Shown: positions 4,433-56,682 of the stretch, one piece after another
How the letters are laid out: each line of letters begins with the position of its first letter
Position numbering within the stretch: the stretch's first letter is position 1
DNA from: an uncultured Nitrosopumilaceae archaeon
Lineage (GTDB): Archaea > Thermoproteota > Nitrososphaeria > Nitrososphaerales > Nitrosopumilaceae
NCBI GenBank assembly: GCA_964636595.1
Contig: CAZWSG010000009.1
Location: 65 to 64,064 of the forward strand
DNA length: 64,000 nucleotides
Reading direction: 5' to 3'
The notes under the pieces: model-generated
Databases searched by the model: none
Told to the model about the DNA's origin: nothing
Seen by the model: only the letters and a program-made list of their open reading frames with translations
Program-made: the position numbers and the translations under genes

Positions 4433-7060
4433 GTGATATTTCAAAAACTTGATTCTCTAGTGGTTGCTCCAACTGGCTCTGGCAAAACAGAGACTGCAGT
4501 AATTCCAATATTTTCCAGAGTTGCACGCTCTAGAAAAAAAGACAAGATCAAGGTACTGTACATCACTCCTCTTCGTGCACTAAACAGAGATGTTTTCAAG
4601 AGAATTATCAAATACGCTGAAAACGAGGGACTACGAATTGAGGTGCGACATGGAGATACATCACAGACAATGAGAAAAAAGATAAACCTGTCCCCGCCTG
4701 ACATTTTGATAACTACCCCTGAGACTCTGATAATACTTCTTACACAGCCTGTAATGTTGCAAGCCCTTGATGAAATTGAATGGATGGTAATAGATGAGGT
4801 CCATGAGCTATTGGGAAATGAAAGGGGGGCACAGCTCTCACTTAGCCTTGAAAGACTCCAGGCAAATACAAAATATCCCATAACAAGAATAGGTTTGTCT
4901 GCAACTGTAGGAAACACTGCAGAGGCTGCCAAGTTTGTGACTGGCACAAAAAGAAAATGCAAGATAATTGAGGACCACTCGATTCGAAAATATGATGTCG
5001 AAGTAAGATACATCGAGGGTACCATTACTGACGTAGTGGACAATGTCATTGAATATGTAACAAAAAATTATCCATCGTCTCCTGTCTTGTTGTTTACAAA
5101 TACTCGAGGAGAGTCAGAGTATATCGCATCAGTACTAAAGGAGCGCTCTAGCATTACAATCGATCTTCACCACGGTTCTCTCTCACAACAAGTTCGTGAA
5201 GAGACTGAAGACACACTGCGAGCTGGAAAACCTGGAATAGTTGTGTGTACATCTTCACTTGAGCTAGGCCTTGACATTGGCTCTGTGGAACTTGTAATTC
5301 ATTATGGCTCCCCAAGACAAGTTTCAAAACTCATGCAAAGAATTGGTAGAAGTAGGCATACGCGTGGGTCTTCTGCAAAGGGTCTGATTGTTACAAACAA
5401 TCCTGATGATGAAATTGAGGCGCTTGCAATCCTGGAGCGTGTCAAGGAAAAATCAATTGAGGATCAAATAGTCCACGATGGTGCACTAGATGTTCTTGCA
5501 CACCACTTGGTTGGGATGAGCATGCAGTTTGGCAAGGTGTCACTTGACTTGGCACTTGATATGATAAAGCAAGCATATTCATTTCGAAATGTATCCATTG
5601 AAGAACTCATCGAAGTGCTTGAGGTTTTGCACAATGGCAATATTGTATTCCTAGATAAAGACGAGATGGCCTTTACAAAAAGAGGTCGCTCGTTTAGATA
5701 TCACTTTGAGAATCTTTCTACCATTCCAGACATTTTAAAATTCAAAGTATTTGATACTGCCTCTAAAAAAATAATCGGAAGCCTAGACCAGAGATTTGTG
5801 GGAGACAATGGGGAACAAGGCAGTGTCTTTGTGCTGCGGGGAATGCAATGGAGAATACTAAACGTTGATGACAGTTCACTGAAGGTAAATGTAGAGCCAA
5901 TCCAGTCTGCTGGAATAAACGTTCCATACTGGGAGGGTGAGAACATTCCAGTTGATTATACCACTGCAAAAAAAGTTGGCATGGTTAGAACCAAGACAAT
6001 TGTTACACCTTTCACAAATAAGGTAATTGACAACCTAAAGCTTGGGATAATTCCTGATGAGAAAAACATTGTAGTTGAATCACAAAGGGTGCGAAATACT
6101 CTGGTGCTGCATTCTTGTTTTGGAACAAGAATAAACTCTACACTTGCAATGCTGCTTTCTGCAATGATCTCTGCAAAGAGTGGATATCTTGTGGACTCGC
6201 GGTCTGATGCATATAGGATCATGTTGTCATCAAACGGAAGAATCCTGGAACAATCTGTGCGTGATGTTATAGCAGACGAATATGACTTGCAGGATATAGT
6301 CCAGGCCTCGCTTGCAGGAACACACAATGTCAACTGGAGAACATGGTGTGTTGCAAAAAAATTTGGAATCGTCGGAAGAGAAGCAGTCTATGACAGAAAA
6401 TCTGCAAGATTCTTGTATGAAAAATATTCAAAGACTGCACTTGCAAAAGAGGCACTACGGGAGCTGTATCATGACAAGTATGACTTGGAAAATACTTCAC
6501 AACTGTTACAAAACATCAAGGCAGGGCAGGTCAAAGTATCCTGGGTTGAAGTCGAGGGCTTTTCAAAACTTGCTGAACCCATACTTGACCATACAACAAA
6601 ATACTATGCATCTCCTGCAAACATGGACAAGGGAATACTTGACTTGGTAAAAACAAGGCTGATGAAGACACGACACAGATTGGTTTGTGTACGATGTGGC
6701 AAGTGGGAAAAAGTAGTAGAAACTGGTCAGGTAAATGATATTCCATCATGTCCATACTGCAAGTCTAGGCAGATCTCTGCAACATTTTACACTGACTATG
6801 ACCTGCCAAAAATAGTGCAAAAAAAGATTGCAGGAAAAAAGATAACAACTGAAGAAAACCACAAGTTTTCTCGGGCCTGGAAGGTGTCATCGCTTCTTGC
6901 AAACTTTGGCAAGACTGCACTTGTTGTGATATCGGGATATGGTGTGGGTGCAGACACTGCAGCAAGAATATTGCGAAACATGGTGGGAGAAGAAGAACTC
7001 TACAAGCAAATTTACGAGGCAGAAAGACAATATGTCACAACACGGGGATTCTGGGACTAG
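4433..7060 (+). CDS. Lhr-type DEAD/DEAH-box ATP-dependent helicase with C-terminal zinc ribbon; the true start is probably upstream of 4433
   Basis: Motif I APTGSGKTE, motif II DEVHEL, motif VI QRIGRSRH, C-terminal CVRCGK...CPYCKS. The frame is open from 4313 and encodes the Q-motif-like LEEKFRNLGFEHLTEIQQKAVP before the first canonical start (GTG 4433). Confidence 0.85.
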   Translation: MIFQKLDSLVVAPTGSGKTETAVIPIFSRVARSRKKDKIKVLYITPLRALNRDVFKRIIKYAENEGLRIEVRHGDTSQTMRKKINLSPPDILITTPETLIILLTQPVMLQALDEIEWMVIDEVHELLGNERGAQLSLSLERLQANTKYPITRIGLSATVGNTAEAAKFVTGTKRKCKIIEDHSIRKYDVEVRYIEGTITDVVDNVIEYVTKNYPSSPVLLFTNTRGESEYIASVLKERSSITIDLHHGSLSQQVREETEDTLRAGKPGIVVCTSSLELGLDIGSVELVIHYGSPRQVSKLMQRIGRSRHTRGSSAKGLIVTNNPDDEIEALAILERVKEKSIEDQIVHDGALDVLAHHLVGMSMQFGKVSLDLALDMIKQAYSFRNVSIEELIEVLEVLHNGNIVFLDKDEMAFTKRGRSFRYHFENLSTIPDILKFKVFDTASKKIIGSLDQRFVGDNGEQGSVFVLRGMQWRILNVDDSSLKVNVEPIQSAGINVPYWEGENIPVDYTTAKKVGMVRTKTIVTPFTNKVIDNLKLGIIPDEKNIVVESQRVRNTLVLHSCFGTRINSTLAMLLSAMISAKSGYLVDSRSDAYRIMLSSNGRILEQSVRDVIADEYDLQDIVQASLAGTHNVNWRTWCVAKKFGIVGREAVYDRKSARFLYEKYSKTALAKEALRELYHDKYDLENTSQLLQNIKAGQVKVSWVEVEGFSKLAEPILDHTTKYYASPANMDKGILDLVKTRLMKTRHRLVCVRCGKWEKVVETGQVNDIPSCPYCKSRQISATFYTDYDLPKIVQKKIAGKKITTEENHKFSRAWKVSSLLANFGKTALVVISGYGVGADTAARILRNMVGEEELYKQIYEAERQYVTTRGFWD

Positions 7061-50729: not shown

Positions 50730-50761
50730 AACTCTATTCCTTGTCTAGTAATAAAATTAGA

Positions 50762-50810
50762 GATTCTGGTACCTTCACGGGTCATAATTCTCCGTGTTAC
50801 CAGTCGGGAC
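50762..50810. repeat. left terminal inverted repeat
   Basis: GATTCTGGTACCTTCACGGGTCATAATTCTCCGTGTTACCAGTCGGGAC. Confidence 0.9.
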
Positions 50811-50845
50811 AGACGGTTTTCGTCTTTTCCAAGTCTGAAAGAACT

Positions 50846-51196
50846 TTAATCCTTTTTCCTTGTGAATTTTCCTTTGATAAATCCTGCATTTACTTCAAAC
50901 GAGTCCAATTCGAATGGAAATCTGCCTTGCGGTTTCTTGATTTTGAATTTGAACAGATCAATATCACCTTGAAATCCATTGGCTGTGGTGAAACTAATTG
51001 TGCCATTTTTCTTACCACCTTTTTTGTCAAGAATCAGATGAACTGTTCCATTATCTACTACTAATCGTACAGATATCTCACTTCCATGTTCTAGAAATTC
51101 ATCATAGTCAGTCAATTCAGATTTGGCTTTTTTGATTGCCATGAAAGAAAAATGGCTTTCATCTATTAAAACTTCAAAAGCCCCGTAATTGAACAT
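50846..51196 (-). CDS. transposon passenger ORF, 116 aa, no family recognised
   Basis: Clean ORF with a beta-rich, Lys-rich sequence. Confidence 0.4.
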   Translation of the reverse strand: MFNYGAFEVLIDESHFSFMAIKKAKSELTDYDEFLEHGSEISVRLVVDNGTVHLILDKKGGKKNGTISFTTANGFQGDIDLFKFKIKKPQGRFPFELDSFEVNAGFIKGKFTRKKD

Positions 51197-51586
51197 CTAT
51201 CCAAAACACTCCTAAAGTTAACAAGACCTTGTTTTGACACAGATTGACGCAGTTATCCTTCCCATATGATGATAGTCTAATGCTATGAGACACGAGTTGT
51301 TGAGTATGACAAAAACGTGATCTAATATTGATTCTATGAATTTCATATTAGAAATAGTATGTCTTCCTAATTGTTAAATAATAGATATTGTAACCTCACA
51401 TCGTTGTTTGGGATTGTGCCGTACGTCAGGCATTTTAGAACAATGTTAGCTAGTCCTTTTATGCAAATTTCGCCTATTATAAGTATGAACTGTGATGAAC
51501 TACCTCATTCTATGACTTTGGAATTTAGGAATCTAGGATATGTTTATAGGACGAATTTTAATCATGGAGCGTACGGTGTATAAAAA

Positions 51587-51811
51587 ATGATGCGTTTAGG
51601 ACTCACACAAGATGAAGTAATTGCAAAAGAAGTATGTGCCAAGATAACTCGTGTAATGGGTGTAGAACAATTTGGCAATGAGATTGCCATACGAAGTGCA
51701 AAGGAAATTGTTGAAAAAATCAGAACACAAATAGGAAACGAACATCTGGTACAAGCAATAGAAACAGAACTAAAGAATTGTCACACAAACGTTCAATGGC
51801 AATTTGCGTAG
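51587..51811 (+). CDS. transposon passenger ORF, 74 aa, predicted helical, no family recognised
   Basis: ORF MMRLGLTQDEVIAKEV... Confidence 0.35.
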   Translation: MMRLGLTQDEVIAKEVCAKITRVMGVEQFGNEIAIRSAKEIVEKIRTQIGNEHLVQAIETELKNCHTNVQWQFA

Positions 51812-51847
51812 AAATATTTTTTATAATCTTTAATTTTTAATGTTATT

Positions 51848-52351
51848 TTACTGTGAAGATTGATGTTCAATTTTAACTTGTATAGTGTTTGATTCTATCG
51901 TTGTATCAGTAATGTGTCCTACTGCAGATGCTGTAGCTTTGAAACCATGTTGAAAAACAGCGATGAGTCCAAAACAAACTACTATTGCAGTAACACAAAG
52001 CATTGTTAGAACCATTATGGATGCATATGTGTATTGAGAAAGGTCATTGACAAATGCAGACCAAATGACATAGAGATGCAACAAAATTTCACATAATATT
52101 GCTGCGTAGATTATCATACTACATAAAAGTTGATGATTTATTGTAGCACTTGGTTTAAAATTAATTGCAAGAATAGACCCAAAACCTGCAAACCCTATGA
52201 TAGTTGCAGAACTGATCATCACTTCACCGCTTGGTATTTCATTTGAATTGGTATTGTTTGAGGTTGTGTCTGCATAACTCTGTGAAAAGGAGAAACAGAC
52301 AAGCACTAATGTTGAAAATATTATAATTGAATTAATCTTATACAAACTCAT
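51848..52351 (-). CDS. transposon passenger membrane protein (signal/anchor plus about 4 TM helices)
   Basis: MSLYKINSIIIFSTLVLVCFSFSQSYA followed by four hydrophobic segments. Confidence 0.45.
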   Translation of the reverse strand: MSLYKINSIIIFSTLVLVCFSFSQSYADTTSNNTNSNEIPSGEVMISSATIIGFAGFGSILAINFKPSATINHQLLCSMIIYAAILCEILLHLYVIWSAFVNDLSQYTYASIMVLTMLCVTAIVVCFGLIAVFQHGFKATASAVGHITDTTIESNTIQVKIEHQSSQ

Positions 52352-52427
52352 TCACATCTCCAAAATGGAGAAGTTAAACCTTGTGAGTATTTTTGCCAAA
52401 CATACTTGTATTTTGTACCGTAATTGA

Positions 52428-53537
52428 TCATAAACTCGCCCGCTGAATCAAAGTTTTCCACTTGTCTTGTCCCTGAATCTCTATACCACAAGCTTGTGCA
52501 GGTGTCTTACTGTCCAAGCTCATGTGTGGTCTAATGTAGTTATGGTATAGTTGATAGCCATTAATCATGACTGAATCAGGCTTTTTCAAACCCCTGACTA
52601 CTTTCTCTCTGTCTCGAAATTCACCGTTTAGACGTTCCATCTTGTTATTGTTCATGTCGCCTTTGAAGTGAATATGTCGTATGTGTTTTGACTGGGGTTT
52701 TTCCCTAGTGTAAAATTCTTTTGTGAATGCTTCTGCAAAGTTTCTAGCTCCATCGGTAATCAGGATTTCAGGTCTTTTACCAGCTACTTGCTTCGCCTTG
52801 ACGAATAACGGTCTTACATCCTCTGTATACTTGCTATCTGATACCTGTTTTGCTATCCAATAACGAGTTTCGTCATCCATTAGGGCATAAAGATATTTTG
52901 TATTCCCTCTTACTTTGATGAAGATCTCATCAGCTCTCCATGTACTTGACACTTGTGGAGTTATCTGTTCAAGATACTTTTCCATCAATCCAATGTATTT
53001 TTTGATCCACTTGTAGACTGTTTTGTGTGAAATCTCAACGCCTTGTAATCTTAGAAACTTTTGGACATTCCTTAGAGATTCACCAGTAAAGTACAACTGC
53101 ATCGCTGAAGTAATAGTTTGAGGGCTTGATCTCATTCCTTCAAAACCTAGATTGATTGTAAACCGTTTGTTGCAATCTTTACAGGAAAATCTCTGCAAGT
53201 TGCCATACTTGTTGTGTCTTAATCCGTGTTTTACAATTCTGTCAGAATGACATTTTGGACAGATTGAAGTGTTAAGCTGTTCAATTACAACCTGTTTTCG
53301 TTCAACTGTATTTCTTATGGTTAAGCTGATTTCTAGACAGTGTGTATGTTTGCAACAGACTTTGCGATAAATGCTATCAGGACAGGTACAAACCCAGCCT
53401 GATTTTGTGCTAAAGAGGTCATACCAAGTATCAGAACTTTGGGACTTGACCTGATAGTGAAGCTCATCTACTCGCCTGACCTGATCTGGTTTGTCAGCGA
53501 TTTCTTTTCCTTTTGTTTGTCTATTATTTTGTTTCAT
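52428..53537 (-). CDS. IS6-family-like DDE transposase with N-terminal SWIM zinc finger and zinc ribbon
   Basis: CTCPDSIYRKVCCKHTHC (CxC...CxH) and CPKCHS...CKDCNKRF. DDE core: WRADEIFIKVRGNTKYLYALMDD, ILITDGARNF, NNKMERLNGEFRDRE, YNYIRPHMSL. These resemble IS26/IS6 signatures. Confidence 0.75.
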   Translation of the reverse strand: MKQNNRQTKGKEIADKPDQVRRVDELHYQVKSQSSDTWYDLFSTKSGWVCTCPDSIYRKVCCKHTHCLEISLTIRNTVERKQVVIEQLNTSICPKCHSDRIVKHGLRHNKYGNLQRFSCKDCNKRFTINLGFEGMRSSPQTITSAMQLYFTGESLRNVQKFLRLQGVEISHKTVYKWIKKYIGLMEKYLEQITPQVSSTWRADEIFIKVRGNTKYLYALMDDETRYWIAKQVSDSKYTEDVRPLFVKAKQVAGKRPEILITDGARNFAEAFTKEFYTREKPQSKHIRHIHFKGDMNNNKMERLNGEFRDREKVVRGLKKPDSVMINGYQLYHNYIRPHMSLDSKTPAQACGIEIQGQDKWKTLIQRASL

Positions 53538-53538
53538 T

Positions 53539-53588
53539 TTCGGTACCTAATATTAGGTACCTAATAATATAAACTTTTAGGTACCGAA
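53539..53588. promoter_or_regulatory. operator-like array of three GGTACC-centred 12-mers in the divergent tnp/abrB promoter region
   Basis: TTCGGTACCTAA (53539-53550), palindromic TTAGGTACCTAA (53553-53564) and TTAGGTACCGAA (53577-53588). The 20-bp stretch GGTACCTAATATTAGGTACC (53542-53561) is a perfect palindrome. Confidence 0.6.
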
Positions 53589-53619
53589 GATTTATCTAAG
53601 TGTCTGACATAGGAATAAT

Positions 53620-53790
53620 GTGAAATTACAAAAACAATCATCAAGAAAATATAATGAAAAAGAATATGAAAAATGGGTTGTTGTCATACCGACTGAAAAG
53701 ATCAAAGAATCAGGTTGGAAAGCAGGTGAAGAATTAGAAGTGGACTTTAAAGGAGATAAACTACTAATAAAACGTAAAAGCTCCAATTAA
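53620..53790 (+). CDS. AbrB/SpoVT-family DNA-binding protein (56 aa)
   Basis: Own translation from GTG 53620: MKLQKQSSRKYNEKEYEKWVVVIPTEKIKESGWKAGEELEVDFKGDKLLIKRKSSN. This fits the AbrB looped-hinge pattern (vvIP.e.i...g.k.Gd.lev...gdkiiik). Below the track length cut-off. Confidence 0.55.
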   Translation: MKLQKQSSRKYNEKEYEKWVVVIPTEKIKESGWKAGEELEVDFKGDKLLIKRKSSN

Positions 53791-54528
53791 TTATTTAGTT
53801 TGCTTTTGTTTTGATATAAATCCATTTAGAAAAGATGTAAGTTTTTCATATGATTCTATTGCTTCAATTCTTATCTTCTCACTATCTTCCTCACTTGCCA
53901 TGTGAATATCGCCATCAAAAGGAATGTACCAAATCTGTGCAACAGAATCTACAGATTTGTCCATTCCCTGCATAAAAATTGTATATATGATGGTTTTTGC
54001 AAGTACGGCTGTTTCTCTCATAGTTTTACCACTGTGCCATGCAGTTTTTAGAAATAATGAACCATATGGTTCACCATGACCAATAGCAAGGAATGTTGTT
54101 ATTTCCTCAGAAATTCCAGTACTTGTGACATGATAAAGTTCAGCAGTATTCTGTGAGTTCTTTATTGCCATTAGAATCTCAAGTGAATCACCATGTACCC
54201 TGTCCTTGTATCTTTCATTTAGATGCAAACTCAAATCTTCTACAACATTGATCAGTTCATCCAATGATTTGATCTGTTTACTCTCAACATGTTCTGCTAC
54301 CTGTTTTAAGAATTTCAAAAATACTCCTGTAATTCCAGCTGCACCGATTACTGCATTTGGCATAGCTTGGAATATTTTATCACCTTTCTCCTCATTATTA
54401 TCTCGCAAGATTTGACTATCACTAACAAGTATTATTCCATCTTTACAAGTCGCACCCAAAATATAGGTCAAATCTCGTTTCTTATTATTTCGGTACCTAA
54501 TAAAATGATCCTTGTTTACACTAATCAT
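53791..54528 (-). CDS. stand-alone proteasome beta-subunit/HslV-like Ntn threonine hydrolase
   Basis: TYILGATCKDGIILVSDSQILRDNNEEKGDKIFQA...IGAAGITG aligns to archaeal beta TTTVGIxCKDGVVLAADxR...KKIxKI...AGxxGD (Thr1, Asp17 and a Lys33 equivalent present). AIGHGEPYG sits where GSGS is normally found. An alternative TTG start at 54471 lies directly before the Thr codon. Confidence 0.65.
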   Translation of the reverse strand: MISVNKDHFIRYRNNKKRDLTYILGATCKDGIILVSDSQILRDNNEEKGDKIFQAMPNAVIGAAGITGVFLKFLKQVAEHVESKQIKSLDELINVVEDLSLHLNERYKDRVHGDSLEILMAIKNSQNTAELYHVTSTGISEEITTFLAIGHGEPYGSLFLKTAWHSGKTMRETAVLAKTIIYTIFMQGMDKSVDSVAQIWYIPFDGDIHMASEEDSEKIRIEAIESYEKLTSFLNGFISKQKQTK

Positions 54529-54538
54529 TGAAAATCAT

Positions 54539-54587
54539 GTCCCGACTGGTAACACGGAGAATTATGACCCGTGAAGGTACCAGAATC
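54539..54587. repeat. right terminal inverted repeat
   Basis: Exact reverse complement of 50762-50810. Confidence 0.9.
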
Positions 54588-54630
54588 AAATTAGAATATC
54601 GATAAATATCATAACAATCTCTGATACCTG

Positions 54631-56682
54631 TTGAATAACCAAAAAACGGTATGTATTATTTTTGTTGTAATAGTATGTTCTATCTTTTCTCAGGCAGCAT
54701 ATGCTGCAAATACCTTGATTGCAACAATTCCAGCTGTTGGTTTACATCCTCGGGGTATGGCATACGACTCTGCCAAGGGAGAAATTTTTGTGGCAAATAT
54801 TGGAGACAACACCGTATCCATAATAGATGACACCACAAATACCGTAATTACAACAATTCCAGTAGGTTTACGTGCTTTTGGAGTAGCATACGACTCTGTC
54901 AAGGGAGAAATTTTTGTGACAAACCAAGGTGACAACACCGTATCCATAATAGATGACACCACAAATACTGTAATTGCAACAATTCTAGTCGGCACATCTC
55001 CGGAAGGAGTAGCATACGACTCTGCCAAGGGAGAAATTTTTGTGACAAATTTTGTTAGTAATTCTGTATCAGTAATAGATGACACCACAAATACTATAAT
55101 TGCAACAATTCCAGTCGGCACATCTCCAGGCGGCGCAGCATACGACTCTGCCAAGGGAGAGATTTTTGTGACAAACGAAGCTGACAACACTGTATCAGTA
55201 ATAGATGATGCCACAAATACCGTAATTGCAACAATTCCAGTCGGCGCAGCTCCAGAAGGAGTAGCATACGACTCTGCCAAGGGAGAGATTTTTGTGACAA
55301 ACGAAGCTGACAACACAGTATCCATAATAGATGACGCCACCAATACCATAATTGCAACAATTCCAGTCGGCACATCTCCAGGCGGCGCAGCATACGACTC
55401 TACCAAGGGAGAGATTTTTGTAACAAATGCAAGTTCTGGTACCGTATCCATAATAGATGATTCCACCAATACTGTAGTTGCAACAGTTACAGTCAGTACA
55501 GGTCCAGTCGGGGTAACATACGACTCTGCCAAGGGAGAGATTTTTGTGGCAAATCTGGTGTCTGACAATGTATCAGTAATAGATGATGGCTCATCATCCT
55601 CATCTCCAGGCGGACATGATGTAACAATTTACAACCCACCAAGTCTTGGAAACGATTACCACTTCAAGTATGGTGGAGGGGTATCAATCAACGGAAAACC
55701 ATTTGACATCAAAACATATCACAGCATAATTCCACAGCAGGTGCTTTCAATATACAAGCAAGCAGTATTTAATTTCACAATATATGACGAAAGAGGCGGA
55801 AACACCGTATCCCATGTTGGACTGTACCTTCACTTCAAGGGAGGCGTGGCAGCATCAAACGCAGACACGTGGATATCTTGGGACAAGCACAGTGGAGTTC
55901 AAGTACACGATCCAAACAAAATATTCTCTAGTGCAAATGTCACCACAACAACAGACACAAACTATCGCTATGCTACATTTACCGTAACACCACAAAAGAC
56001 AATGCCTGATTCTTCACTTGTAATGAGAATGTGGGATGACAAGCTTGCATCAGGTGACATTCCAATATGGGGAGCTATCATAATCGTTGATCCAAACGCA
56101 CCAGTACCGGTACAAAAGATACCAGACAACCAGTATGATGACTATGTCACACTAGAAAACATTCTAGATAAAGACGGATATGACATCCCATCACTTTTAC
56201 ACAAACAGTATGCAATGCAGGAAACCTATTCTTCAGTTGACATCAACTGGGTGTATGACAAGGGTACTGATAAGCTGACAATGATTGAAAGCGACAAGTC
56301 AGGAAATGTAATTGGTGATGTGGTGTATGATTTATTCAAAAAATCAGACCTGCCAACAGTCTCAGACCATGATTATGCGTACATTCCACAACAATTGAAC
56401 CGAGATGATATTACCAGTGAACAGGCAGCAATGCAAACTGAGGCAGTAAAGGCACAAAATTATCTTACGCAAACTGATTATCTGGGTTCCAGCATTCCAA
56501 ATTTCACACCATCAGGTGATGCAGTTCCAATACTTGATGGTTATACAAACTCCAAGACAACACAGCTGTACCATGATTCGTCTAATGAGAACACTGCAAT
56601 GAAATCCGAGGCAGACAAGGCAGAGAATCTAGTTGCAAGTCTTGGACTGGTACGACAAAACAATTTTGAGAATTTAAAATAA
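54631..56682 (+). CDS. secreted protein with a seven-bladed YVTN-type beta-propeller and a C-terminal domain of about 360 aa
   Basis: Signal-like VCIIFVVIVCSIFSQAAYA, then seven 42-aa repeats: ATIPVGxxPxGxAYDSAKGEIFVTNxxxNTVSxIDDxTNTV. Confidence 0.75.
   Translation: MNNQKTVCIIFVVIVCSIFSQAAYAANTLIATIPAVGLHPRGMAYDSAKGEIFVANIGDNTVSIIDDTTNTVITTIPVGLRAFGVAYDSVKGEIFVTNQGDNTVSIIDDTTNTVIATILVGTSPEGVAYDSAKGEIFVTNFVSNSVSVIDDTTNTIIATIPVGTSPGGAAYDSAKGEIFVTNEADNTVSVIDDATNTVIATIPVGAAPEGVAYDSAKGEIFVTNEADNTVSIIDDATNTIIATIPVGTSPGGAAYDSTKGEIFVTNASSGTVSIIDDSTNTVVATVTVSTGPVGVTYDSAKGEIFVANLVSDNVSVIDDGSSSSSPGGHDVTIYNPPSLGNDYHFKYGGGVSINGKPFDIKTYHSIIPQQVLSIYKQAVFNFTIYDERGGNTVSHVGLYLHFKGGVAASNADTWISWDKHSGVQVHDPNKIFSSANVTTTTDTNYRYATFTVTPQKTMPDSSLVMRMWDDKLASGDIPIWGAIIIVDPNAPVPVQKIPDNQYDDYVTLENILDKDGYDIPSLLHKQYAMQETYSSVDINWVYDKGTDKLTMIESDKSGNVIGDVVYDLFKKSDLPTVSDHDYAYIPQQLNRDDITSEQAAMQTEAVKAQNYLTQTDYLGSSIPNFTPSGDAVPILDGYTNSKTTQLYHDSSNENTAMKSEADKAENLVASLGLVRQNNFENLK
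54715..55590. repeat. seven 126-bp coding tandem repeats (YVTN blades), several with high nucleotide identity
   Basis: GATGACACCACAAAT recurs at 54826 and 54952 (spacing 126). The blades beginning near 55081 and 55333 are nearly identical. Confidence 0.85.

Follow-up and report, generated by a model that had tools for sequence, protein, structure and literature searches.

Owing to IS26 and antibiotic resistance, IS6 is among the best-studied families of insertion sequences (IS), and its members are described as compact, single-gene and short-ended. A review of the family (PMC7986276) gives ends of 15-20 bp and mostly single-gene elements of about 0.8 kb, names ISDsp3 as the sole member with a passenger gene, a feature that the 'tIS' category of ISfinder permits, and includes archaeal clades that hold no Thaumarchaeota. 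In a 2019 survey of thaumarchaeal mobile elements, IS typically had one or two genes (PMC6563490). Here, we investigated a stretch of 64,000 nucleotides from an uncultured Nitrosopumilaceae archaeon of the ammonia-oxidizing type (GenBank assembly GCA_964636595.1, contig CAZWSG010000009.1, positions 65 to 64,064 of the forward strand; this whole stretch is called the window and is numbered from its first nucleotide). It contains an element of 3826 bp (50762-54587) which is almost certainly an intact IS6-family transposon with passenger genes, i.e. a tIS. Among its genes are one for a small AbrB-like protein (abrB) and one for a proteasome-like protease, and operator-like palindromes placed before these two genes and before the transposase gene (tnp) suggest that the AbrB-like protein acts on all three.

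The element is bounded by terminal inverted repeats (TIRs) of 50 nt, the left arm on the forward strand (50762-50811) being complementary to the right arm on the reverse strand (54538-54587) at 50 of 50 positions. A first-pass annotation of the window had called these repeats perfect, which they are, and 49 bp long, which falls short of their actual extent. In 100 dinucleotide-preserving shuffles no such match arose (0/100), and the 50-mer occurs twice in the window, both times as an end of the element. The octamer AAATTAGA, read directly at 50754-50761 and again at 54588-54595, abuts both arms on the outside and cannot be extended in either direction; this is the 8-bp target-site duplication that had been noted. 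Within each TIR, two subsites of about 25 nt stand in tandem, ATTCTGGTACCTTCACGGGTCATA followed by ATTCTCCGTGTTACCAGTCGGGACA; they are putative transposase-binding sites. The ends begin with GATTCTGG, with GA at the tip and TGG in place of TGT, and most relatives begin with GGTTCTGT; the ends of L006, L012, L031, L032 and L094 (related loci are given by such numbers) are about 80% similar to those of the window. The insertion site lies between the adenylylsulfate (APS) kinase gene cysC (PF01583, 1.6e-56) and a gene for a YNCE-type beta-propeller protein. The GC content of the element is 35.2%, compared with 35.4% for the remaining window, and the rest of the 64 kb was found to contain neither a further copy nor a solo end or a transposase fragment. 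All open reading frames (ORFs) of the element are intact and identical over many samples.

The transposase (369 aa; 52428-53537, reverse strand) had been assigned to IS6 from its motifs, and profile searches and an alignment bore this out. It matched PF13610 (DDE_Tnp_IS240) with 63.8 bits (cut-off 27), its best NCBIfam match was the transpos_IS6 equivalog (1.1e-35; 123.2 bits, slightly below the cut-off of 125), and close relatives carry the annotation IS6 family transposase in their source records. In an alignment of 22 sequences the DDE triad (D203, D262, E301) and R308 at position E+7 were invariant, as were the ligands of an N-terminal CxC..CxH finger (C50, C52, C61/62, H64/66) and of a second N-terminal zinc ribbon (C93, C96, C119, C122; NF050000, 35.9 bits with a cut-off of 28). 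The CxC..CxH finger is the one that had been labeled a SWIM finger: its residues are indeed invariant in the 22 relatives, but the SWIM profile was not significant (E 0.1) and the assignment is weak.

Of 4844 transposase homologues, the 120 best have lengths of about 370 aa throughout and identities of at least 60%. In species-representative genomes the clade occupies at least 580 stretches, nearly all from Nitrososphaerota (including Nitrosotalea, Nitrosopumilus, Nitrosotenuis, Nitrososphaera and Nitrosocosmicus) and Bathyarchaeia; the 90% cluster of the window transposase includes a fragment from Nitrosotalea devaniterrae, so that the host is probably a thaumarchaeon akin to Nitrosotalea. 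To delimit complete elements, their candidate ends were anchored anew at the tip motif of IS6, G(G/A)(T/C)(T/A)(C/T)TG. This gave 39 elements including that of the window, 1970-5424 bp long, with tips that mostly read GGTTCTG, perfect 8/8 duplications and diverse passengers. Ends in the clade extend to about 70 nt and typically hold two subsite copies each, e.g. CTGTTAAC-N-CGGCTCA. The passenger ORFs form 135 clusters, mostly singletons. Pfam recognized few of the 60 passenger proteins with 130 aa or more, namely DNA methyltransferases, HNH nucleases, GmrSD, three proteasome-family proteins, a ClpP-like protease and another transposase; a type II restriction enzyme was recognized by PADLOC. 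The window has a membrane protein gene downstream of tnp, which is not a conserved trait, since two or more transmembrane segments were found in 7 of 29 downstream ORFs and in 12 of 50 upstream ORFs. The clade is characterized by a zinc-finger-extended transposase, long two-subsite ends, variable cargo and, in most members, a divergent small ORF of DNA-binding type. The size and end length of the window element are therefore unusual for IS6, as had been remarked, but no oddity of this copy: they are typical of a large archaeal clade with passengers and long ends, for which a literature search found no describing paper. The mobility of this transposon family is well supported by the 38 related elements, each of which is flanked by a perfect duplication and which occupy different sites in genomes other than this one.

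Three of the loci contain IS6-like elements in tandem with one shared copy of the 8-mer between them (L014:1921-7440, L029:3931-7846 and L088:2932-5975). In L014, ...CAGAACC is followed by AAATATCA, element A, AAATATCA, element B and AAATATCA, and another, third end lies further to the left; in L029 the order is CTTTTTAA, a 632-bp element resembling a miniature inverted-repeat transposable element, CTTTTTAA, element B and CTTTTTAA; in L088 it is TGTATTTG, element A, TGTATTTG and the beginning of element B. The arrays suggest that elements have inserted repeatedly, either precisely at the end of a related element already in place or into its duplication; they hint at end-targeted insertion but do not establish replicative cointegrate formation, the mechanism of IS6 transposition.

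The regulatory signals of the window element are concentrated between the divergent genes tnp and abrB, where a 12-mer scan located three operator palindromes TTAGGTACCKAA within 53539-53588. Operators O1 (53539-53550) and O2 (53553-53564) lie between the TATA-like TTTATATT and the ATG of tnp, and O3 (53577-53588) abuts the TATA-like box of abrB. The fourth operator, O4 (54489-54500), which reads TTAGGTACCGAA on the reverse strand, overlaps the TATA-like TTTTATTA 18-33 nt upstream of the revised start of the protease gene (see below). Sites thus precede tnp, abrB and the protease gene. Transcripts of the three are predicted to be leaderless, with starts at 53537, 53620 and 54471, respectively. 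With at most one mismatch, the 12-mer has these four sites in the entire 64 kb, all within the element, where 0.21 are expected, and the hexamer GGTACC occurs 6 times in the element versus 10 times in the other 60 kb (binomial P = 2e-4).

The same operator layout is found in L008, L085, L088, L095, L098 and L100. In L008, L085 and L098 the stretches TTTATATTATTAGGTACCTAAT before tnp and TTTTATTAGGTACCGA before the protease gene are often letter-exact, whereas L088, L095 and L100 have the same operators at the same positions with less exact flanks; variants of TTTTATTAGGTACCGA stand upstream of the protease gene in the latter three as well as in L017 and L076. In the window, L085, L088 and L098 each of the three promoters has GGTACC, and in L008, L095 and L100 most of the three do. 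The hexamer is GGCACC or GGTGCC at the abrB, tnp and protease sites of L017, and GGCGCC at all sites of L076, including two directly upstream of a transposase gene that lies 1.1 kb from abrB. In L096 and L101, GGTACC sites are found before an unrelated transposase of the DDE_Tnp_1 type. L093 and L038, with transposases 92% and 60% identical to that of the window, encode an AbrB-like protein of another type (type B), and the sites before tnp are TCCACGTGGA palindromes (in L093 two exact and one imperfect, TCCACGTGTA). The operator type follows the small protein and not the transposase, which makes the small protein the likely binder and the three promoters its regulon. Judged from these co-varying sites, the AbrB-like protein quite probably binds the operators and represses tnp, its own gene and the protease gene. 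Of the roles that had been considered for the cargo (addiction, defence or transposition control), the shared operators favor transposition control for the AbrB-like and protease genes.

Two other readings were rejected. The zinc fingers of the transposase do not qualify as operator binders, as the operator type tracks the small protein. The GGTACC at TIR positions 7-12 could have been the same site as the promoter operators, in which case one protein would bind both ends and promoters, but the equivalent hexamer (e.g. GTTAAC) does not recur inside the 38 other elements, and L098 has GTTAAC at its end although its operators are GGTACC. Probably, the GGTACC of the TIR is a coincidence or belongs to the transposase site.

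The abrB gene (53620-53790, forward strand, GTG start) encodes 56 aa with a predicted DNA-binding fold of the AbrB/SpoVT/MazE type. The protein matched PF04014 with 4.1e-5 and 23.9 bits, below the cut-off of 24.7, and NCBIfam AbrB with 7.6e-4 and 19.2 bits versus a cut-off of 28.3; a profile of 12 orthologues matched AbrB N-domains in the PDB at E 0.018. Its structural model has a beta-beta-alpha-beta-beta topology at low confidence (pLDDT 66), and the top fold matches all belong to the AbrB superfamily (MazE, AbrB, SpoVT, VapB, C56, C68; E at least 0.15). All lines point to the same fold, each of them below threshold on its own. It is also the only protein of the element with a PHROG match (phrog_661). 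With 53-68 aa across loci, it consists essentially of a bare predicted DNA-binding domain without the tail that neutralizes toxins in antitoxins. Such a gene is usual in the clade: in 36 of the 39 complete elements a short ORF of 40-85 aa precedes tnp on the other strand, mostly within about 120 bp, and 28 of these 36 resemble DNA-binding proteins by eye, either AbrB-like (in four subtypes), ribbon-helix-helix (RHH) or zinc-ribbon. Pfam matches to these ORFs, with sub-threshold to moderate E-values, were to MazE_antitoxin (6), RHH_1 (4), Omega_Repress (3) and zinc ribbons. The protein of the window represents the first AbrB subtype and is called AbrB-A.

The protease gene (53791-54471, reverse strand) is convergent with abrB and abuts it. 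Its product of 226 aa is a proteasome-like N-terminal nucleophile (Ntn) hydrolase according to PF00227 (2.9e-14; 53.6 bits with a cut-off of 22.4) and to an AlphaFold2 (AF2) model built on 18 homologues, which reached a pLDDT of 86 with disorder confined to residues 1-16 of the long ORF. Foldseek matched the model to 20S alpha and beta subunits and to Anbu with probability 1.0, TM-scores of 0.65-0.70 and 13-19% identity. The longest ORF extends to 54528. We placed the start at the TTG of 54471-54469 (Met-Thr) because 5 of 18 homologues start exactly at M-TYILG and an ATG, GTG or TTG stands directly before the Thr in 12 of 12 protease loci. Removal of the Met would expose an N-terminal Thr. Conservation is at least 90% for the equivalents of Thr1, Asp17 and Lys33 of proteasome subunits, which in the long ORF are T21, D37 and K51. 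In place of the canonical GSG (Ser129) stands GHGEPYG, with the His at least 90% conserved, and a distant homologue in L017 retains GSG. The C-terminal helix comprises 32 residues (213-244). By profile search the family has at least 269 members, including proteins from a Pacearchaeota metagenome-assembled genome, a cultured Methanolobus and one record labeled Paceibacterota. A fold search against viral proteins returned only generic phage HslV-like and proteasome-like proteins. No AAA+ unfoldase partner is evident in the 12 protease loci; the AAA_21 gene of L101 is part of an AbiL-like pair with RloB.

These 12 independent loci are the window, L008, L017, L076, L085, L088, L095, L096, L098, L099, L100 and L101. 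AbrB-A accompanies the protease in 11 of them and is convergent in all 11, its gene lying just downstream, where it abuts or overlaps the 3' end of the protease gene or, in L096, is one ORF away. The same 11 loci have a transposase near the cassette, which is of IS6 type in nine and of the unrelated DDE_Tnp_1 type in two (L096 and L101). The cassette is spread over Nitrososphaerota, Pacearchaeota and other archaea. The module is enclosed by transposon ends with perfect duplications in L008 (TGTGAACG) and in L017 (CGCCAGGC). L085 has candidate ends of a less typical kind, matched at 21 of 24 nt (TACACTGT…) and flanked on both sides by ATTTTTTA; the stricter end-motif scan found no ends there. 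In L099 (positions 4880-5831; Methanolobus sp. ZRKC2, CP146980.1) the protease gene is located between nifH and glnB/amt genes, with an IS6-like end remnant GATTCTGTTAAGTT upstream, while AbrB gene, transposase and operators are all missing; this copy, which comes from a cultured organism, may have decayed or been domesticated.

Protease and transposase identities are discordant among these loci. The protease nearest to that of the window (L085, 50%) sits with the most distant transposase (30%), L008 shares 63% identity in the transposase and 28% in the protease, and the nearest transposase (L093; 86% DNA identity, confined to the tnp gene) has neither protease nor AbrB-A. From this discordance we conclude that AbrB and protease move as a pair; AbrB-like gene, operators and proteasome-like gene are inherited together as one cassette, which is wired to the accompanying transposase. 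Near-identical transposase genes exchange regulator cassettes and cargo. The L093 locus (700-2075) encodes, beside the transposase, a type-B AbrB-like protein of 57 aa and other cargo (DUF2299). Further genes accompany the cassette in some loci. In L101 (5001-9205; also in L102) the AbiL-like pair, an AAA_21/AAA_15 ATPase and RloB, is inserted between the AbrB-like gene and the DDE_Tnp_1 transposase gene with its GGTACC operators, and in L100 a weakly PycTM-like membrane protein follows the transposase, so that some such transposons carry recognizable defence genes.

We propose the following mechanism. The 56-aa protein of predicted AbrB fold would bind the four copies of the palindrome TTAGGTACC(G/T)AA and, positioned between TATA box and start codon, would repress three promoters, its own and those of tnp and of the proteasome-like threonine hydrolase. 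The hydrolase would be the cognate anti-repressor and degrade or clip the AbrB protein. The result would be a double-negative switch that is normally off and whose occasional flip leads to transposase expression, a logic like that of ImmR/ImmA in the integrative and conjugative element (ICE) ICEBs1, with unrelated folds. A tIS with an AbrB repressor of three promoters and an anti-repressor protease is the best explanation for the locus as a whole, and we hold its chances to be even. The role of the protease as AbrB anti-repressor is the most tentative part, less likely than not although it is our favored hypothesis, and is drawn from gene association and from analogy. It is favored by four observations: AbrB is a bare DNA-binding domain, the constant partner of the protease is the AbrB protein and not the transposase, in L048 a second, unrelated protease fills the partner position, and regulators of other folds take the same slot without a partner, so that the slot serves transposase control first of all. 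In L048, AbrB-A is followed on the same strand by a ClpP-like SDH protease (PF01972, 1.2e-13), an arrangement that resembles a repressor-protease operon. Several points weigh against the proposed switch. Its promoters and TATA boxes were assigned by eye from the sequence. AbrB-A occurs without a recognizable protease in L040, L081 and L015, i.e. the repressor needs none, and, except in L048, protease and abrB genes are convergent and not co-transcribed. Catalysis may differ from that of proteasomes, given the change of Ser129 to His. Restriction-modification, GmrSD, HNH and AbiL-like genes among the sister cargo make a defence role of the pair plausible, and neither a second exact copy of the element nor an empty site was found (see below).

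The pair could instead be a passenger defence, abortive-infection or addiction module, in which the protease is an effector acting on host or virus proteins, AbrB restrains it transcriptionally or physically and the repressor is simply shared with the tnp promoter. The AbrB/MazE fold is classic for antitoxins, the pair is found with two unrelated transposase families, and the sister cargo includes methyltransferases, a restriction enzyme, GmrSD, HNH nucleases, the AbiL-like AAA_21+RloB pair (L101) and the weak PycTM match (L100). In addition, Tn3-family transposons are reported to carry toxin-antitoxin pairs in their transposition module (PMC7157771). However, PADLOC recognized neither the AbrB-like protein nor the protease, the convergent genes form no operon, and the 56-aa AbrB protein has no toxin-binding extension. 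RHH or zinc-ribbon proteins occupy the same slot without a partner, which argues that the primary job of the slot is transposase control, and the operators remain on the transposase promoter even after a change of transposase family. On balance, we regard a defence or addiction module as rather improbable. The protease could also act on the transposase, either by processing it (e.g. removing the zinc-finger N-terminus) or by shortening its lifetime, which would restrict activity in time and to the element of origin. Control of transposase stability by host proteases is an established theme, and protease and transposase share operators and would be co-produced. Yet the pair persists beside transposases of two structurally unrelated families, the AbrB partner stays constant while transposase identity ranges from 30% to 63%, and the nearest transposase, that of L093, works without any protease, all of which makes the transposase an unlikely substrate.

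The remaining rival is that the structure is no functional mobile element at all, its repeats being host-regulatory or due to chance and its genes decaying or unrelated passengers. The two checks that the first-pass annotation had put forward, for another copy of the exact element and for an empty site, both came out negative and speak for this rival, as does the equal GC content of element and host. The exact transposase occurred in 33 blocks of the collection, and the five places displayed from 24 contigs were all the cysC/propeller site, without a second copy. A metagenome scan with the end sequence, in which known junctions were excluded by a prefix that spans about half of the possible sites, gave no match. 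Contigs with the exact CysC either carry the element or stop before the insertion point, and the reconstructed empty-site sequence had no match in the metagenome scan. With these searches negative, the support for recent mobility of the window copy itself comes from its perfect ends and duplication only. But a perfect 50-nt repeat that chance did not produce, a perfect duplication, an intact transposase with every invariant residue, ORFs intact across samples and the 38 relatives, whose perfect duplications lie at unrelated sites, contradict a non-mobile structure, which is already refuted for practical purposes. One 23-kb metagenome contig with identical cysC (L092:6537-6550) stops 13 bp past the gene, about 20 bp short of the insertion point; possibly the assembly broke off there because the element is polymorphic for presence and absence.

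To return to the switch of AbrB repressor and threonine protease, it is conceivable but doubtful that it is a portable device which gates transposition in at least two unrelated transposase families. If so, it would give the orphan family of proteasome homologues a first function and a first substrate, would be the first insertion sequence to encode its own regulatory protease, and could supply repressor turnover to hosts that may lack soluble Lon or ClpP. With an anti-repressor protease, a transposon would time its own movement in a new manner, and the proteasome fold would have a new job. Independently of this, the cassette provides the orphan family with a conserved genomic context, and the co-varying shared operators turn unknown cargo into a small testable circuit.

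The remaining cargo consists of the right-arm ORFs and agrees with the gene content listed by the first-pass annotation, which comprised, beside the proteasome-like and AbrB-like proteins, a membrane protein and two orphans. The membrane protein (167 aa; 51848-52351, reverse strand) has a signal-like N-terminus and four transmembrane segments by hydropathy. Its gene follows tnp on the same strand at a distance of 76 bp, and it is weakly similar to an ORF in L007 (25% over 114 aa), without a family match. The first orphan, orf116 (50846-51196, reverse strand), is a small soluble passenger with 17 relatives at E<=1e-3 among 1.84 billion representatives; most of them are about 100 aa long and align from query residue 19-25 on, so that the true start is probably Met19 (51142). 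The second, orf74 (51587-51811, forward strand), comes from the ORF list and was gene-called in all metagenome copies; next to it lies the doubtful orf70 (51371-51583). Neither orf116 nor orf74 had a match in Pfam, NCBIfam, PADLOC or PHROG. Over all window proteins PADLOC gave nothing credible, its sole match being the protease to a methyltransferase model (14.7 bits), and Rfam gave nothing credible on the element, with one long non-coding RNA match (21.7 bits, E 0.085). A scan for sigma-70 promoters and terminators showed no enrichment, with a model that is not applicable to archaea.

On the far side of the insertion, the right end of the element lies 44 bp upstream of the beta-propeller start codon, just past a TATA-like GATAAATATC (54588-54631). 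The insertion may have altered the promoter context of this gene; hybrid promoters created by IS6 members are described in bacteria (PMC7986276). The beta-propeller gene (54631-56682; also in L001, L002 and L005) contains 126-bp tandem repeats in 6-7 copies, and its product measures 683, 641 or 557 aa among samples of the same population, which indicates a polymorphic repeat number. Beyond it, in the same population, lie VapBC-like pairs of PIN-domain and MazE/AbrB-type small genes (L001:1532-5094). At a few kb from the element, they show that AbrB-fold proteins are also ordinary parts of chromosomal toxin-antitoxin systems in this genome.

Compared with known systems, the element is closest to IS6 (IS26, IS257/IS431, IS240, IS6100), with which it shares the IS6/IS240 profile match, the DDE triad with a basic residue at E+7, the 8-bp duplication and, in approximate form, ends of the GGTTCTGT type. 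It differs from IS6 in its two-part ends, its size, its five to six extra ORFs and its divergent regulator. The IS6 end motif (GG tip, cTGTt) is recognizable, whereas a length of 50 nt with two subsites exceeds the usual 15-20 bp, and 3826 bp lies outside the compact format of tnp only and about 0.7-1.5 kb, a trait that is descriptive rather than defining. The archaeal branch as a whole breaks all three rules of the family, with 2-5 kb, long two-part ends, and a usual regulator-like ORF plus cargo; its cargo bay holds mostly unknown genes and some defence genes. Within IS6, clades h and i (mostly Clostridia; PMC7986276) have, by description, a similar N-terminal CxxC zinc-binding extension before the helix-turn-helix (HTH) and DDE parts, at 340-350 versus 369 aa, but are bacterial and have no reported cargo or regulator cassette. 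To the extent of our searches, the repressor-protease cassette has not been known as part of a transposon and the archaeal IS6 branch is not described in the literature found; the expectation that a transposon-borne proteasome-like module had not been described agrees with a full-text literature search, which returned none.

For the individual parts of the cassette, likenesses exist elsewhere. C56 of pSSVi and C68 of pSSVx are likewise stand-alone AbrB-type domains of about 55-68 aa from archaeal mobile elements, and Sso7c4 is a further small AbrB-fold protein; C56 and C68 are Sulfolobus plasmid-virus proteins without a protease partner, and the matches to them are weak (E at least 0.8) and based on a low-confidence model. 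The protease has its counterpart in the work of Fuchs, Alva and Lupas, who reported 22 new proteasome homologues, including the archaeal 'ACC' with 17 sequences, a coiled coil and WP_161937350.1 as reference; no genomic context suggestive of function was found in that 2021 survey (PMC8665760). ACC and the window protease share the proteasome-subunit fold, the N-terminal Thr, the absence of a partner ATPase, the archaeal origin and a long C-terminal helix, the last predicted for ACC and also present in Anbu (best TM-score, 0.70). In the family of the window protease, with its 269 or more members, an AbrB-like partner is conserved, the context is that of a transposon and GHG stands for GSG. From the published description, the window protease may be an ACC member.

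The cassette as a whole recalls two kinds of gene pairs. In the toxin-antitoxin pairs embedded in Tn3-family transposons (PMC7157771), an antitoxin-type DNA-binding protein is likewise encoded by the tnp promoter in a two-gene cassette with a proposed role in transposition control. Those pairs, however, belong to known toxin families and are co-transcribed, whereas the partner in the window is proteasome-like and convergent and its AbrB protein has no toxin-binding tail. Convergence in 11 of 11 loci, AbrB proteins of 53-68 aa, a partner from no known toxin family and the lack of a PADLOC match set the cassette apart from type II toxin-antitoxin systems. With ImmR/ImmA of ICEBs1 and similar pairs of phages and ICEs (PMC8960796, PMC10233336) it shares a proposed repressor and a neighboring protease at a divergent promoter region. 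ImmR is a cI-like HTH protein, ImmA is a zinc metalloprotease (COG2856) and their carrier is an ICE, in contrast to the AbrB protein and Ntn-threonine hydrolase of a DDE transposon. The cassette is thus no member of the ImmR/ImmA group, and the analogy lies in the proposed logic only. L048, with repressor and protease on one strand, comes nearest to the ImmR/ImmA layout.

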